A stretch of DNA of 64,000 bases from Eremomyces bilateralis CBS 781.70 (lineage: Eukaryota): assembly GCA_010015585.1 (NCBI GenBank), contig ML975149.1, one strand, 5' to 3'. Numbering within the stretch: position 1 is the first letter of the stretch; every line of letters starts with the position of its first letter. Made by a program: the position numbers and the translations under genes. Below, one piece after another: positions 1 through 62,117 of the stretch. The notes under the pieces were generated by a model. It was not told the origin of the DNA and did not search any database. It was given only the letters and a program-made list of their open reading frames with translations.

Positions 1-303
1 CCACCCTCCGCGACCAGTCGATCATCTCCGGGATCGCTTGCTGGTTGAGCTGGAGTCCATCCTGGCGAAACTTCTCCAAGACCTGGAAATTTGTCTGCAG
101 TGTGTTCAACGCGGCCACGGCTGCCTATGCAACTACATCGTTAGCCGAGGGACTCCAAAACTTAGGGTTTCGAGATGGCGATGACGGACACTGTAGTCTC
201 GTGCCATGGTGGCGTATGTGCGGTACGCGTGGTATTTTCTCGGCGGTAGGATAGGTGTATGACGCGCAAGCGTTGCCAATTTAAAAGGAATGGCTATTCG
301 CAT
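1..303 (-). CDS. MET7: Folylpolyglutamate synthase (FPGS), 5' part only; runs off the window start
   Basis: Not in ORF track. Exon 303..190, intron 189..125 (GTCCGT...CTAAC...TAG), exon 124..1 translate to MRIAIPFKLATLARHTPILPPRKYHAYRTYAT-MARDYS/AAVAALNTLQTNFQVLEKFRQDGLQLNQQAIPEMIDWSRRV, matching the fungal FPGS N-terminus pattern (AVxALNxLQxN...AIPEMxxWxRR). Second in-frame ATG at 207. Confidence 0.85.
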
Positions 304-1073
304 TGGTGGACAGGCCCAGGACGCGAATGATGCCGACGTTCATGTGAAGCGAAATGGATGGTTGAAAAGTCCACTAGCTGCCGGTTCTGAATTGAGGATG
401 AAACAGGAGCTCTGGAGTCTGGAGTATGGAGGGATGTATTCCGTACCAAACCTTCGATAATAATCTCGATATGTAATAATAGTACCAAGGTGTCACGAGC
501 TAAGTCCTAGTGAATCCGAACATCGGAATTCAGATCCCCCACAGGGGCCTCCAGTATCAGCTGTCGACTACCAGTACCACCATCTATCACCAAGCGATCG
601 CGGGCAGAGTACTCCAGCCTCTGATCTTGCGGGGAAACATGTGGCTTATTCTTCGTCTCCAGTTATCAAGACGAATGACGAAACAAGTCTCAACTCTGGG
701 GATACCCTTGCTATTTACTCGAATCCTATCACATTGTATATTCGTATTGCTCGGAAAACAGTGAAAGCATCAGCATACTACGTAGGCCTGTATGATACTA
801 GATGGAGATTCCTGGTATCGCCGAGGTTTCATATGCGATGCCCGCCCGCTCGCCATGCCTTTCACATGGAGCACGGAGAGTTGGCACTCAACCTCCTCCG
901 TTCGAGTTTAGTTATTTCAAAAGCCTCAAGTCCCGTTGGGTGACCATGATATAATCGAGATTTATACTGGTGGCCCTCTGTGTCCATTTCGTCTCGCTGT
1001 CTGAGCCCGTTGTTAAGAGGCTAAGCTAAAAGAAGATTCCCCTTGACCACCAGTTACCACCATCGCCGCCATA

Positions 1074-2825: not shown

Positions 2826-3287
2826 ACATGGGAGACAGGGGGACGGGAATTGGAGTTTCAGGAACTGGTCTGTTTTGCTGGACACCATAGATGCCAGAGC
2901 ACAATCTAGCATGATCGCGACGAATTATTGGACGTACAAATTTATCAAATATTATATTGCAATGACGCCAGGATGCTATAGAAAAGGCATAGTGAAGAAC
3001 TAGGATATCTCAATTTGCCCCATCGTTCTCACAATGTGGTCCAGTGGTAACCGTGCCAAATAATCGTACCTCTCAAACCAATTCTCGTACAACCCGCTTG
3101 CTCTCAAACCAGATAAAGCAACATCCAGTACTGTTGCGTACGGTACCTCCCTATGTAAACGAATGTAGATTGCCCAGCAAATCCAAGAAGAGGCTCGCAC
3201 GCCCAGCCGTGGACCCCTGAAATGGATCCCTGCCAGACTCCGCTACGTCTCTATGAACAAGATTAGCCACACACGTCGTATGGGCGT

Positions 3288-57204: not shown

Positions 57205-57935
57205 TTGGATCGTTCTTCGTTACTTGGAGTTTGGACAACGGCTTTGGCCTCAGGTAGGCTGTTTAGTGCGGTATTATAAGGTGTAATGAATGAAGAATGA
57301 ATGAAGAACAGAATCGACGCCTAGAATAGGTATCATGCTTTTGAATGCTCCATACTCAACGGATGAACTCGATAGTACACCATAAACCTACTCCTCAAGA
57401 CTATGTGTCCAAAGTTGTGTCGACCTGTCTAGCGGAAAGGGGATGAAACGGGAATCCGTTCACTACAGCGTGGTGTAGCCAGGCAAGCATGGCAACGATT
57501 TAGGAGATTCCTATGCTCGGAAGGTGTGCCTCACGGCCATTACTATCCTTTCCCCAAGAGGTATTCAGAATTCCAGACCAGTCGACACTAGGACGACTAG
57601 GTGAACCGAAATCCGAGGGACGTCTCACGGGTAGGGCTAGGGAGGAACTAGGAAGAGAATGATGACGTAAGCGGCTAGTTCTAAGTTGCACGTGACCCGA
57701 ATTGTCATCAAAAGCAAGCTCTTCAATTCTTCACAGCTCGAAAATTTTATTCCTTCACAAACACCTATGAAGCCTTCCGCCTACCAATATTCAACGTAGC
57801 CCACAGGTTTGGAGTTGGCCAAAAAATGATGAACTAATGATACAATAAAGTCTTTGCAACTTGACAGCCCGCATCTGGGCACCATCCGCTCGCTTCTGTA
57901 CGTATTTTTACCCTCAGCACCACACCCCCTCCGCA

Positions 57936-58025
57936 TTTGAAATGATTAAGACTCAATATCTGTCAATCCTCTGAGCCTATGGCGAGAATGAAGATACCAA
58001 ATGAGTTGGTCGACTAATGATCAAA
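57936..58025 (+). ncRNA. Box C/D snoRNA, predicted guide for 2'-O-methylation of 18S rRNA U1231 (S. cerevisiae numbering), inside a 5'UTR intron (57898-58091) of SEN34
   Basis: Terminal stem TTTGA(57936-40)/TCAAA(58021-25). Box C ATGATTA 57942-48. 13-nt guide ATCTGTCAATCCT 57958-70 is complementary to conserved 18S AGGAUUGACAGAU. D' CTGA 57971-74, GCC/GGC mini-stem, C' ATGAAGA 57988-94, box D ATGA 58017-20. Flanked by donor GTACGT 57898, branch CTAAT 58076 and CAG 58091. Confidence 0.85.
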
Positions 58026-58121
58026 CCTTCCCTATTATCTTGGAATTATACCGACAGTTTGACAATGATCCCCGGCTAATGCAAAATTCAGATCCACTAC
58101 CCGTGCTCTCTTAAACCAACA

Positions 58122-59096
58122 ATGACTGATTCACCCGACCCCGTATCCCTCCCCATCCCCATCTCCCACCTCGCCCACCGCTACTTCCTCTACTCACCTC
58201 CCAATATCGCCTATCTCCGCCGCCACCACAATGTCTGCGGCGTCCTCATCGGCTCCCTCCCTCAAGTCCCTTCTCAAAACGTCTTCATGGGCCTCCCCCT
58301 CGAGCTGATGCCCGAAGAAGCGCGCGTGCTCGTCGAGCGCGGTGTGGCGTACATCGTCGACGATGTCGCGGCGCATCGAGAAGGGCTAGAGAAGCTGAAG
58401 ACGGCGGACGGGGCGGAGCGGCGGCGGGAGTATATGCGGTTGCTGCGAGATGTGGGGCGAAAGGATGCGGAGGAGGTGATGCGGAAGAAGGAGGAGGTGA
58501 GGCGCGGGGCATTGGAGCGGGCGGCGAAGAAACGGGCTGAGCAGCAGAAGAAGAACGGCGAAGATGTAGGCGCGGAACAACGCGTAGAGGGAGGCGATGC
58601 GCAGGACGTGGATGACGGGACAGAACTATTCTCTCAGCGTTCAGGCAGCGTGGCGTCTAGACCCAGTATCCCAACCGAGTCATACAATTTCATCACCCCC
58701 ACCTCCTCCTCTCCCCTCTTCGACGTCCCTCCGTCCTCCGAGTGCGCCAGTACCTCCCCCGCCGCCATCCCCGTCCCCGACTCGTATCCCCTCTTCGCGC
58801 ACCTCCATGCCAACGGCTACTTCCTCTTCCCCGGCATGCGGTTTGGATGTAATTACGTCGCGTATCCCGGCGACCCGCTGCGGTTCCATTCGCATTTTTT
58901 GTCAAGGGGCGTCAAGTGGAATGAGCAGGTGGACCTACTAGATATCGTGGGAGGAGGACGATTGGGGACAGGTGTTAAGAAAGGGTACTTGCTTGGGGGG
59001 AAGGTAGAGGCTGAGCAGGCCGCGAGAACGCGGGATGGAGATGGGATATCCGAGGACGATGTACGGGTTTTCTCGTTCGAGTGGGCTGGCATGTGA
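58122..59096 (+). CDS. SEN34: tRNA-splicing endonuclease subunit Sen34
   Basis: CGVLIGSLPQVPSQNVFMGLPLELMPEEA and the catalytic region PGMRFGCNYVAYPGDPLRFHSHF...GGGRLGTGVKK. Confidence 0.95.
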   Translation: MTDSPDPVSLPIPISHLAHRYFLYSPPNIAYLRRHHNVCGVLIGSLPQVPSQNVFMGLPLELMPEEARVLVERGVAYIVDDVAAHREGLEKLKTADGAERRREYMRLLRDVGRKDAEEVMRKKEEVRRGALERAAKKRAEQQKKNGEDVGAEQRVEGGDAQDVDDGTELFSQRSGSVASRPSIPTESYNFITPTSSSPLFDVPPSSECASTSPAAIPVPDSYPLFAHLHANGYFLFPGMRFGCNYVAYPGDPLRFHSHFLSRGVKWNEQVDLLDIVGGGRLGTGVKKGYLLGGKVEAEQAARTRDGDGISEDDVRVFSFEWAGM

Positions 59097-59627
59097 GGTC
59101 CATCTCAATCAGCATCGCTTTTTATAATACCTACTGGTTTTCTCATGGAACCTGCGGGACTAAATCATGCGTGAAATTCAATGATTATGATGAATATGCG
59201 ACCCAGAAATCCATCGAGGCTGTTGTGCATGATTGATCCATGATAACCAGACTACATGTGTTCCAAGATCGTGGTTCGTGGCCAACGAATAGCCCAACAG
59301 TTTTGGCTCGCGAGTCACAAAAGGCTACACAAAACCAGTTCTAGCCCGATGTCCGTTGATGCGCTTTGATTGATCGCCACTGTCCTTGCCTTGTATCACA
59401 GCTAACGGTACTGAAGTAAACACTAATAATGCATATTCAGCAACGGCCTCCCTGTCGAATGCTGCGAAGTGCAAAATATCGGAACCCCCCGTCCCGTCCC
59501 GTCCCTATCATCCCTCAACAGCGGCCCGTCCATTTGAATACCCTCGGCCGCAAACCCCAAGCTAAGCCACGTGCGCCATAATACAGGCCCCATCTCCGGT
59601 CGACCGTCGCAAGTGCGTTGGAGTGGA

Positions 59628-62117
59628 CTACATGCCATATCCGGGCGGCATGCCTCGTCCCGGCCCAAATCCACCCGGTCCTTCAAAACCCCGACGGAGC
59701 ATCTCAGGAGGCGGCGGTCCACCAGGCGGTATCCCCGACCCCATGAACCCAGGCGGCGCGCCCCCGGGACCAAAGGGAAAGCCAATGTGCGGCGGCATCC
59801 CAGGCAGGCCGTTCGGAGCGCCCGGGGGCGGGCCTTGGCCGGGCGAAAACAGCGGGGCCATGCCGGGCGGTCCGCCGCGAGGTCCGCCGGGCATGCCGGG
59901 ATGCGGGCCGGGCATTGGCGGCGGCATCCCAGGGGGGAAGCCGGGGGGATGGTTGACGCCCATGCGGTTTCGGAAACCGGGTGGGGGGCCGACGTTGCGG
60001 TCGGGGGGGTTGCTGGGGGGTGGGTGTGCGCCCGCGGGAATTCCGGGCGGCGGGCCGTGGCCCAAGCCGTTTTGTTTGGGATTGGACCAGTACGGGTCTT
60101 GGGGGGGGAGTTGTTGCGGGATGCCGAGATTCATGGTCATCTGTGGTCCGCGGGGGTTGACGGTTTCGGCCGTATTTCGTCGTTGGAGGGCAGCCAGGAC
60201 GTTGTCGTCGAAGAGACCCGGCGGAGGCTGGGGTGCGCCTCGCTGGGATGACTTACGGGAAAGTTCATTGCCGATCGGGTGATCGCCCTCGGAGAAGGCA
60301 TTGGGTCGCTCTTCGAAGAAAGGAGGAAGATTCTGTAGATGGGGACGGTTCTTTGGTGGCATCTGCGGCAACATAGGGCCGGGAGCCGAGTGTTGGCGGT
60401 TAAGGGTGCTATTGCCATTGTTGACTTGACCATGTTGCTGGTCAATTTGCTGCTCAAGCTGCAGATGTGGCGCGTTCGGATGCTGTCGCATAAGATTCAA
60501 AAGAAACTGGCTGTCCTGGTTGAGCAAATGCTGTGGAATACCACCGGCACCATGCAACCCAGCCATGGGTGCAGAAGCGTTTCGGTGCACCGGTTCCTGC
60601 TCTGCTTCCCGCGATCGTCTCTCTCCATGGCCTCCGGGCGGACTTTCACCGTTTATGTTCGGCATGGTTCGAAGCATTTCAGCGGCATCGAATGGATTTC
60701 GACCACCTTGGTTGGGGGAGACAACGGTCTCGTGATCGGCCCCATTACGTCTCACATATTCGGGAGGCGAGTGTACCGTTTCTGATCGACCTGCTGCGTT
60801 CTCCATTGGCGGTGGTCCCCTAGGAGTGAACTGGGCATTCCCACCTGCAGTAGGCTGCGGCGATTTGGATTTGCTGTTGAGCATGGCTAGGATTTTCTGG
60901 AATCCCAGAACATCTTCGTTGGCCTCGGGGAGCGTAGCAACCTCCACAGGAATCTGAGGGGGTTCGGGTCTGAGAGGTGCAGGAGCAGGCTCGTCCTTTG
61001 CCGCGAAGAAACCGGCGAAGCGCGACTTTGACTTGGCTGCCGCATCGATTTTCGGCGTCGGTACAACCTCTGGGCTGTCCACATCCGCCTTCTTCTGGTC
61101 TCCCCAGGTAGAGAACTTATCAAATCCGAGATTCATGTCCTTGATAGAGAGTTTGTCGGCTTGATGGTGTTCCTGTGTCCCAGTAACCACATCTTTCCGA
61201 AGGTTCGACTTCTCATCAACGCTCGGCTTTTGAGCGCGCATTCTCTTCTTCCACTCTTCAAAGTCCTCTGCGGTCTTCGACGACTGTTGCCCGTGATTCT
61301 TCTCCTCTTTGATTGGTTCCTCTGCCATCCACTCCGGGTCTGCTTCGACCCTGACTTCTCGTCCTCGAGTCCATTCGCGATCGTCTCGATGCTCTCGATC
61401 ACGCCAGCCGTCGGTTCGAGAGCGCATTTGGGAAGGCTTCCCTTCAGTGGGTATCTCTTCTCGCCACCTTCCCTGCCCGTTCCGTCGGTCAGAGGGCGCC
61501 TTGTCTCTCCAACCGTTAAGATCCTCAGGGCTCGTTAAATTATCCCATCTCCCCCCACCAGTTCGAGCTTCGCCTTCATTCCTTCCCATTCTACGGCCAT
61601 TTGAAAGCCCGCTAGCATCGCGTGACCGTTCCGGGTCACGCCTTGGCTTTCCAAAGGTATGCCGATCAGATCCCAGCACAAAATCGTCGGACGTAGGAAT
61701 GCCTCTATCGCCGGATTCGTGGCTGCGGGTATTGCCCCTTGCAGTGGATGCAAATGGTGTCCTTGGAGGGCCGAGAAGAAGAAAATCGTCGGCTAGATAA
61801 ACAGTCAGCAAGCATTCAGCAAGAACTTCCGGAACACCAACCTGTTGCAGAGCCTCGTGACTTGTTCTGATGGGGGAAAGGGCGTGACGAGCTATTTTCG
61901 CCCTCATCACCTCGGTTGATGCCAGCTGTTCGTGTCTTGCGTTGGGTGGCGTCGTTTGAAGAACTGTGCAATATGTTAGCCGCTAGATCAAACGGAACGA
62001 AAGCGTATCCGCTCACTCTATCCATTGCTCGATGGATGGGAGAGCGTCCGGTTTGTGTACTAGCGGTGATTCGCGTAATGTGAGCAGCTGCTCTCGTGTG
62101 TATTGGATAAGTGCCAT
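59628..62117 (-). CDS. eIF4E-binding, Pro/Gly-rich protein (Eap1/4E-T-like); exons 62117-62017, 61963-61842, 61792-59628
   Basis: The first exon, missing from the ORF track, encodes MALIQYTREQLLTLRESPLVHKPDALPSIEQWI (YxxxxLphi 4E-binding motif). Then LGPPRTPFAS, DPEWM, DFEEWKKRMR, KSRFAGFF and a PPGF-rich tail. The 3' end is less certain. Confidence 0.7.

Follow-up and report, generated by a model that had tools for sequence, protein, structure and literature searches.

The stretch of DNA considered here, hereafter the window, covers 64,000 nucleotides (nt) of the genome of Eremomyces bilateralis CBS 781.70 (GenBank assembly GCA_010015585.1, contig ML975149.1). It carries the predicted SEN34 gene, for a subunit of the transfer RNA (tRNA)-splicing endonuclease, with MCM6 as upstream neighbour. 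The 5′ untranslated region (5′ UTR) of SEN34 is interrupted by a short intron, and this intron holds what we read as a box C/D small nucleolar RNA (snoRNA), a putative member of the SNORD110 family that would guide 2′-O-methylation of 18S ribosomal RNA (rRNA) and whose two terminal boxes depart from the consensus in a matched way. The features of the locus are given below; X1 is a public sequencing run, R1 a model built from metagenomic relatives and A1 an alignment of homologues, all three described further on.

57778-57897, + strand: exon 1 (5′ UTR) of the SEN34 transcript; its 5′ limit is merely where the RNA contig starts (X1, record 2)
57898-58091, + strand: spliceosomal 5′-UTR intron, 194 nt, GTACGT...CTAAT...CAG, from the sequence and from a joint in X1
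57898-57903, + strand: 5′ splice site GTACGT (the closing CAG of the intron ends at 58091)
57936-58025, + strand: predicted box C/D snoRNA, ~90 nt including the terminal stem, from the SNORD110 match and model R1
57936-57940, + strand: 5′ half of the terminal stem, TTTGA, pairing with 58021-58025 as the C helix of the predicted kink-turn (k-turn)
57942-57948, + strand: box C, AUGAUUA, with U instead of G at position 6; same motif in 34 of 64 homologues
57958-57970, + strand: D′ guide ATCTGTCAATCCT, 13 nt complementary to the 18S motif AGGAUUGACAGAU
57971-57974, + strand: box D′, CUGA, invariant in A1, partly since the search pattern required CTGA
57988-57994, + strand: box C′, AUGAAGA, aligning with the TGATGA/TGACGA column of the relatives
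58003-58016, + strand: D guide GAGTTGGTCGACTA / GAGUUGGUCGACUA, 14 nt, abutting box D; the +5 rule would select a C
58017-58020, + strand: box D, AUGA, with A instead of C at position 1; covaries with position 6 of box C
58021-58025, + strand: 3′ half of the terminal stem, TCAAA
58076-58080, + strand: branch-point motif CTAAT, 54 nt past the snoRNA and 12 nt before the 3′ splice site
58092-58121, + strand: 5′-UTR part of exon 2, 30 nt, from the sequence and the X1 contig
58122-59096, + strand: SEN34 coding sequence, 324 amino acids, predicted tRNA-splicing endonuclease subunit, from the open reading frame (ORF), its PF01974 domain and its PDB matches

The leader intron of SEN34 is spliced, because one contig of X1, compared with the region 57300-59300, joins 57897 to 58092, skipping exactly 194 nt bounded by GT and AG, with 46 nt on the shorter side of the joint. 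The same contig covers 57778-57897 before the joint, which places these positions in the 5′ exon; X1 has no cover over 57903-58036 and is uninformative on the mature snoRNA. As for the host, the product of the ORF at 58122-59096 contains the tRNA_int_endo domain (PF01974, 1.1e-12), the catalytic domain of tRNA-intron endonucleases. When it was compared with solved structures, the six best of nine matches were all named Sen34 (best 8hmz_B, E 1.6e-25), the other three were archaeal-type endonucleases, and none was Sen2. The host ORF is thus predicted to be Sen34. The snoRNA is alone in its spliced intron, in the sense of its host. The intervals on its two sides, 38 nt to the 5′ splice site and 54 nt to the branch point, are compatible with processing; the main 5′ distance for intronic snoRNAs of Neurospora is 41-60 nt (Liu et al., 2009, PMC2780460).

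Within the intron, the elements of a box C/D snoRNA follow each other in the expected order. A single A separates TTTGA (57936-57940) from box C, and the two ends of the RNA can be written as a k-turn: a C helix made of TTTGA and TCAAA, a bulge A-A-U, the sheared G.A and A.G pairs, a U.U pair, and then a Watson-Crick U:A pair. The sequence thus has the k-turn geometry of the box C/D class, together with internal D′ and C′ boxes and an antisense element longer than the usual minimum of 10 nt, the 13-nt guide that abuts D′. In box C/D k-turns the 3b:3n pair is U:U and the 4b:4n pair is G:C (Ashraf, Huang and Lilley, 2017, PMC5689011), and it is at 4b:4n that the window has U:A where canonical snoRNAs have G:C. 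Compared with RUGAUGA, box C shows one departure, G to U at position 6, and box D differs from CUGA at its first position. In the fungal snoRNAome, the first C of box D is replaced in 4.2 % of cases, mostly by A, while conservation at every other position is 99.7 % or more; that collection had been cleared of candidates with non-canonical boxes (PMC5824354). An insertion in box C suggested by cmscan (UGAU[uaa]GA) was rejected, since in the relatives the letters after ATGATTA vary and no GA comes after them. The original prediction, made from the letters of the window, had described an intron of 194 nt with GTACGT, CTAAT and CAG that ends 30 nt before the ATG of SEN34, and a C-D′-C′-D layout with AUGAUUA and AUGA as terminal boxes, closed by a TTTGA/TCAAA stem. 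All of these were found again on reading 57600-58500, in order and at the same coordinates, the predicted 57897/58092 junction was seen in X1, and both domain and structure matches agree with the host that had been proposed.

To which family could this RNA belong? With permissive thresholds, the best Rfam match in 57500-58300 is SNORD110 (RF00610), over its full model, at 57937-58024 (26.4 bits, E 0.0057). The Rfam seeds for SNORD110 and snoR14 are from animals and plants. R1 is a sequence-only model: it was built, with the window excluded, from 24 metagenomic relatives, of which 22 have a SEN34 match and two (L080 and L100) have short flanks, and its sole match in the 64 kilobases (kb) is at 57937-58022 (30.1 bits, E 2e-8, model positions 2-94 of 98), that is, the homology to fungal members extends beyond the guide. 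In Neurospora crassa the snoRNA Nc CD44, of 85 nt, intronic, and detected by northern blot and reverse transcription, has a D′ guide of 15 base pairs (bp) for 18S-Um1227 and a D guide for 26S-Cm776; its homologues are given as snR82 in Schizosaccharomyces pombe, snoR14 in Arabidopsis and HBII-55 in human, with none in Saccharomyces cerevisiae (Liu et al., 2009, PMC2780460). For snR82, primer extension has confirmed the site in S. pombe (PMC4138321).

In the window, the fifth nucleotide upstream of D′ is the A at 57966, which would select the U in 18S AGGAU*UGACAGAU. This is the 13-nt pairing and the +5 U that the original prediction had put forward, and the same duplex is drawn for Nc CD44 with 18S-Um1227. 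The RNA of the window can thus be taken as the local member of a known guide family. SNORD110 is the same as HBII-55, which we take to be the guide of human 18S Um1288. The selected U falls at about 1227-1230, on an assumed numbering, in seven contaminant ribosomal DNA (rDNA) loci whose 18S start could be recognised; the 18S motif is present in these seven by construction of the search, and all of them come from organisms other than that of the window. We conclude that the snoRNA of the window is the putative counterpart of Nc CD44, snR82, snoR14 and HBII-55 (SNORD110), a known and widely conserved family, and that its D′ guide, by orthology, would direct 2′-O-methylation of the 18S U that corresponds to Neurospora Um1227.

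The likeness has its limits. Nc CD44 shares with the window its intronic origin, the 18S stretch paired by the D′ guide and the C-D′-C′-D layout; it differs by its canonical AUGAUGA and CUGA and by a D guide (for 26S-Cm776) unrelated to that of the window, and the name of its host gene was not found in the main text of the article as searched (PMC2780460). More generally SNORD110/HBII-55 (RF00610), snoR14 (RF01280) and snR82, grouped in clan CL00076, address the same 18S site with a guide upstream of D′, whereas the snoRNA of the window has U:A boxes and another host gene. A survey of small RNAs in Trichophyton rubrum, a filamentous ascomycete like the source of the window, contains a cloned RNA (complementary DNA, cDNA) labelled SNORD110 (PMC3890542). 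This RNA, TRnc_3297, is by its label (RF00610) a candidate orthologue; it differs in being given as 138 nt long, as '3′UTR', and without a target (Table 2 of the same paper). No counterpart is listed in the portion consulted of the snoRNA survey of Aspergillus fumigatus (PMC2377427).

Relatives were collected by scanning metagenome contigs for the guide followed by the D′ box, which gave at least 118 loci (designated by L numbers), 80 of them with 2-kb flanks. In sixty-five of those listed, box C is correctly spaced and a box D can be recognised; four more are near-duplicates of these (L050, L061, L095, L116), six are ambiguous or truncated (L024, L038, L063, L088, L102, L103), and the remaining 43 of the 118, with guide and CTGA and no box C, were taken as chance matches. 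Alignment A1 comprises 64 distinct sequences, namely the 65 without the exact duplicates L118 and L105, plus the window. When Rfam was run on 20 of the 65 loci, four of the 12 that are linked to SEN34 reached E<=1 (26-29 bits) and none of the 12 the gathering threshold; among eight canonical loci, the only one to pass it was the plant-like L106 (snoR14, 66 bits). Rfam does not capture the SEN34-linked fungal branch. Two of the collected contigs hold further snoRNAs: L106 bears a plant-like cluster with U61 and two copies of snoR14 (119-583, + strand), and L074 has, at 2876-3215 (+ strand), an snR61-like snoRNA (53.7 bits, above gathering) and an snR55-like one (49.1 bits, just below).

In A1, position 6 of box C (column 16) and position 1 of box D (column 161) read U:A in 34 sequences, G:C in 29 and something else in one, out of 64, with no half-changed pair at all: the single other case, L104, had been moved three columns by MAFFT and really has ATGATGA and CTGA. 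Pairing is thus observed in 98.4 % of the sequences against a mean of 49.6 % after shuffling; in 500 column shuffles the observed figure was never attained, and sliding the partner by one to three columns leaves 31-55 % paired. We also made an uncurated motif test, in which CTGA, or ATGA outside the C′ box, was sought 28-85 nt after D′ in distinct sequences, with the following outcome.

G at position 6 of box C (n=33): CTGA in 28, ATGA in 5
U at position 6 of box C (n=34): CTGA in 4, ATGA in 31
No box C (n=41): CTGA in 9, ATGA in 13

The uncurated test agrees with the curated covariation. Some sets of loci that share a D guide mix the two forms: Nc CD44 is G:C, whereas L003 and L044, with the same D guide, are U:A, and L073 is U:A, whereas L025 and L026, with the same D guide, are G:C. 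It may be argued from these mixed sets that the double switch happened repeatedly. The compensatory character of AUGAUUA and AUGA, which had been proposed from the window sequence alone, is borne out by this absence of one-sided change, and the pair appears to be a U:A version of the k-turn, conserved and covarying, that is common to a large fungal group. The parts examined of the fungal snoRNAome paper (PMC5824354) do not mention a G:C/U:A covariation, and literature searches found no paper on covariation of the box pair or on SEN34 as a snoRNA host.

The association with SEN34 extends over the same group. Using the Sen34 of the window as a query, tblastn found a homologue (37-58 % identity) in 24 distinct loci of the 118 listed, on the same strand and starting ~150-200 nt after the guide. 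All 24 have ATGATTA (ATGATTC in L002 and L107) with ATGA. In each, a motif for the 5′ splice site precedes box C by 40-60 nt, and the snoRNA is followed by CTAAC, CTGAC or CTAAT, then AG, a short leader and an ATG. Among the matches listed, SEN34 was found at none of the 31 curated G:C loci. MCM6 is near none of the 118 listed loci; the conserved linkage is therefore that of the snoRNA with SEN34, within one large fungal group. The synteny with SEN34 that the original prediction had suggested looking at was recovered in 24 of the 118 listed loci and with the same leader-intron layout; the location in the SEN34 leader intron is apparently kept in that group and not beyond it. A U:A snoRNA also lies in the 5′-end intron of a gene for a polymerase subunit of Rpb11/AC19 type in L030:2220-2669 and L031:1794-2213 (PF13656, 1e-18 and 2e-27), and a look-alike exon of this type occurs near the U:A snoRNA of L013, at 61-534 (- strand), so that the Rpb11/AC19-type gene (L030, L031, L013) constitutes a second recurrent host of the family. 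L027, which is U:A, has no obvious coding host and an apparently non-coding context.

While the D′ guide is fixed among the listed relatives, the D guide varies between lineages. To look at its targets, we used at least 29 eukaryotic rDNA stretches, contaminants of prokaryotic assemblies that come from organisms other than that of the window; the D guide of the window was scanned on 29 of them and those of the relatives were compared on the 11 longest. These sources (L119-L147) are themselves worth recording: at least 29 prokaryotic genome or metagenome-assembled genome assemblies include contigs that bear eukaryotic 18S rDNA, in some cases complete rDNA units, presumably by contamination. The D guide of the window has no run of 10 bp or more in the 18S, 5.8S or large subunit (LSU) rRNA of the 29 stretches, its best match in a conserved region being 9 bp with one G.U. 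Two longer runs (11-12 bp) were discarded: both occur upstream of the 18S, in spacers of unrelated organisms, and are no more than expected by chance. Since the scanned rRNA is not that of the window, this guide should be called 'without known target' and not a proven orphan. When the complement of the D guide was sought in the window itself, allowing up to three mismatches, 11 sites matched, where 4.3 are expected and none of 100 shuffles reaches 11; one of these is the guide itself, and the others follow no visible pattern, none being convincing. The original prediction, which had recognised no target for this guide, holds as far as the scanned rDNA and the window are concerned.

The D guides of the relatives are more eloquent. 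That of the L004 group has a perfect match of 12-13 bp in conserved rRNA, that of L012 a match of 11 bp in 5.8S, those of L107/L109 and of L046 matches of 14 bp, and those of L030 and L073 matches of 12 bp, all perfect and in conserved rRNA, while that of L003 has 10 bp at the Neurospora Cm776 motif. For L034/L062, the L049 group, the L072 group and L074 the matches to rRNA are absent or weak. The D guides of L042 and of L107/L109 target neighbouring positions of one LSU stretch. Almost every lineage (L003, the L004 group, L012, L030, L042, L046, L073, L107/L109) has a different conserved rRNA site for this guide. This looks like frequent switching of targets on the background of a fixed D′ guide, the D guide being probably the evolutionarily labile half of the snoRNA.

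A number of points weigh against taking the element as a functional snoRNA with a meaningful pair of boxes. No Rfam family is matched at gathering thresholds in the whole 64-kb window, and SNORD110 reaches 26.4 bits where its gathering threshold is 64; of the Rfam search that the original prediction had suggested, recognition at threshold therefore failed, and what stood is a match to the full SNORD110 model below it. In the window 5b:5n is A.A, where most relatives have a U before ATGA. The predicted fold does not surpass that of shuffled sequences (z -0.28), and the minimum-energy structure lacks the terminal stem; across the homologues, with a fixed register, the columns of the terminal stem pair in 31 % of cells. 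Box D positions in A1 were picked by eye, and because the homologues are related, the counts from that alignment are not independent events and overstate the number of events. In the uncurated test, four of the 34 U-type sequences also carry CTGA, and three of the 34 have no ATGA in the span (two are long RNAs with box D beyond the scanned span, and the third is L104). X1, finally, is the only public run with this stretch of the window; it is stored as contigs, and that it derives from RNA was guessed. A predicted fold no better than shuffles is usual for box C/D snoRNAs and lends no support.

These points gain or lose weight according to what else the element might be. Were it a decaying relic, in which the changes in the boxes cripple assembly of the small nucleolar ribonucleoprotein (snoRNP) so that the RNA is degraded with the intron, then two terminal boxes off the consensus, an Rfam score far under gathering, a D guide without target and the A.A mismatch at 5b:5n would all be natural. 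A relic would however hardly keep the same box pair in 34 of 64 homologues while half-changed forms are wholly absent, nor an invariant D′ guide although the SEN34 hosts share only 37-58 % protein identity. There is, moreover, a detected RNA with such ends: Nc CD55 of Neurospora, known from a cDNA and from a northern blot, runs from ...GAUGAUUA to ...AUGA, that is, in our own reading of a sequence whose boxing was lost, it has the non-canonical pair of the window, AUGAUUA...AUGA. It differs in being an orphan of 137 nt from another family (PMC2780460, supplement 1). Decay is, all in all, a highly improbable account. We consider it also quite improbable that the element acts mainly in cis on SEN34, on the efficiency of splicing or through assembly of a snoRNP on the pre-messenger RNA (pre-mRNA), rRNA guiding being secondary or absent. 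Its strict confinement to the SEN34 leader intron in 24 listed loci would fit such a role, but the same snoRNA, with its guide, is found in unrelated hosts (Rpb11/AC19-type in L030 and L031, non-coding-like context in L027), and because of this it is the RNA, and not the relation with the host, that is conserved; besides, what stays invariant coincides exactly with the 18S antisense element. As to a fortuitous resemblance, with an 18S-complementary 13-mer and box-like motifs in an ordinary intron, it is true that 17-mer matches without boxes are common and that 43 of the 118 listed loci have the guide and CTGA with no box C. The complete architecture in the right order and spacing, the R1 match at E 2e-8 and the syntenic context in 24 listed loci speak against it, and the chance reading is effectively refuted.

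We therefore hold, with a probability of about 0.86, that the 194-nt 5′-UTR intron of SEN34 encodes a genuine box C/D snoRNA of ~90 nt that guides modification of the 18S equivalent of Um1227. The course of events may be pictured as follows. The SEN34 pre-mRNA is transcribed and spliced, as the joint shows; the lariat would then be debranched and the snoRNA trimmed to the ends protected in the snoRNP, as in the general pathway of intronic snoRNAs, with which the flanking intervals of 38 nt (5′ splice site) and 54 nt (branch point) agree. The C and D ends would form a standard k-turn with U:A at 4b:4n; the D′ guide would pair with 13 nt of 18S, and fibrillarin, as orthology suggests, would 2′-O-methylate the U opposite the fifth nucleotide of the guide. 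The U:A box pair would be an inherited, selected trait of a large fungal clade of the family, hosted mostly by SEN34, while the D guide would be labile, with no recognisable conserved rRNA target in Eremomyces bilateralis. One may go a step further and propose that the U:A k-turn is a selected alternative throughout that clade and not a tolerated defect, that the double switch between G:C and U:A happened more than once, and that the U:A form travels with hosting in the SEN34 leader; we consider this unlikely. If the U:A form were such a selected alternative, the species-specific D guide could address a substrate other than rRNA.

Some neighbouring features may be recorded here. Exon 1 of the SEN34 leader contains, within 57826-57848 (+ strand), two overlapping miniature upstream ORFs (uORFs), ATG ATG AAC TAA at 57826-57837 and ATG ATA CAA TAA at 57837-57848. 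An AUGAUGA within this uORF region gives an Rfam match to SNORD43 that is merely at chance level (E 9.8), and the spliced contig extends over the region. The opposite strand downstream of SEN34 carries an ORF of 759 codons at 59628-61907 (- strand), of low complexity and rich in Pro, Gly and Arg. No tRNA genes were found within the 64-kb window.

The snoRNA family itself was already known; what the present analysis adds is the U:A covariation, the group-wide hosting in the SEN34 leader and the lability of the D guide. The fungal branch of SNORD110/CD44 escapes Rfam gathering and may escape pipelines that discard non-canonical boxes. As a consequence of both, this 18S guide could wrongly look absent in many ascomycetes; and if the U:A k-turn is indeed a selected form, pipelines that expect canonical boxes would systematically miss such snoRNAs. 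The change from G:C to U:A, always on both sides, provides natural evidence that position 4b:4n of the k-turn needs pairing and not a fixed sequence. Finally, the repeated placement of this RNA in the leader of SEN34 ties the production of an rRNA guide to the transcription of a gene for a tRNA-processing enzyme.

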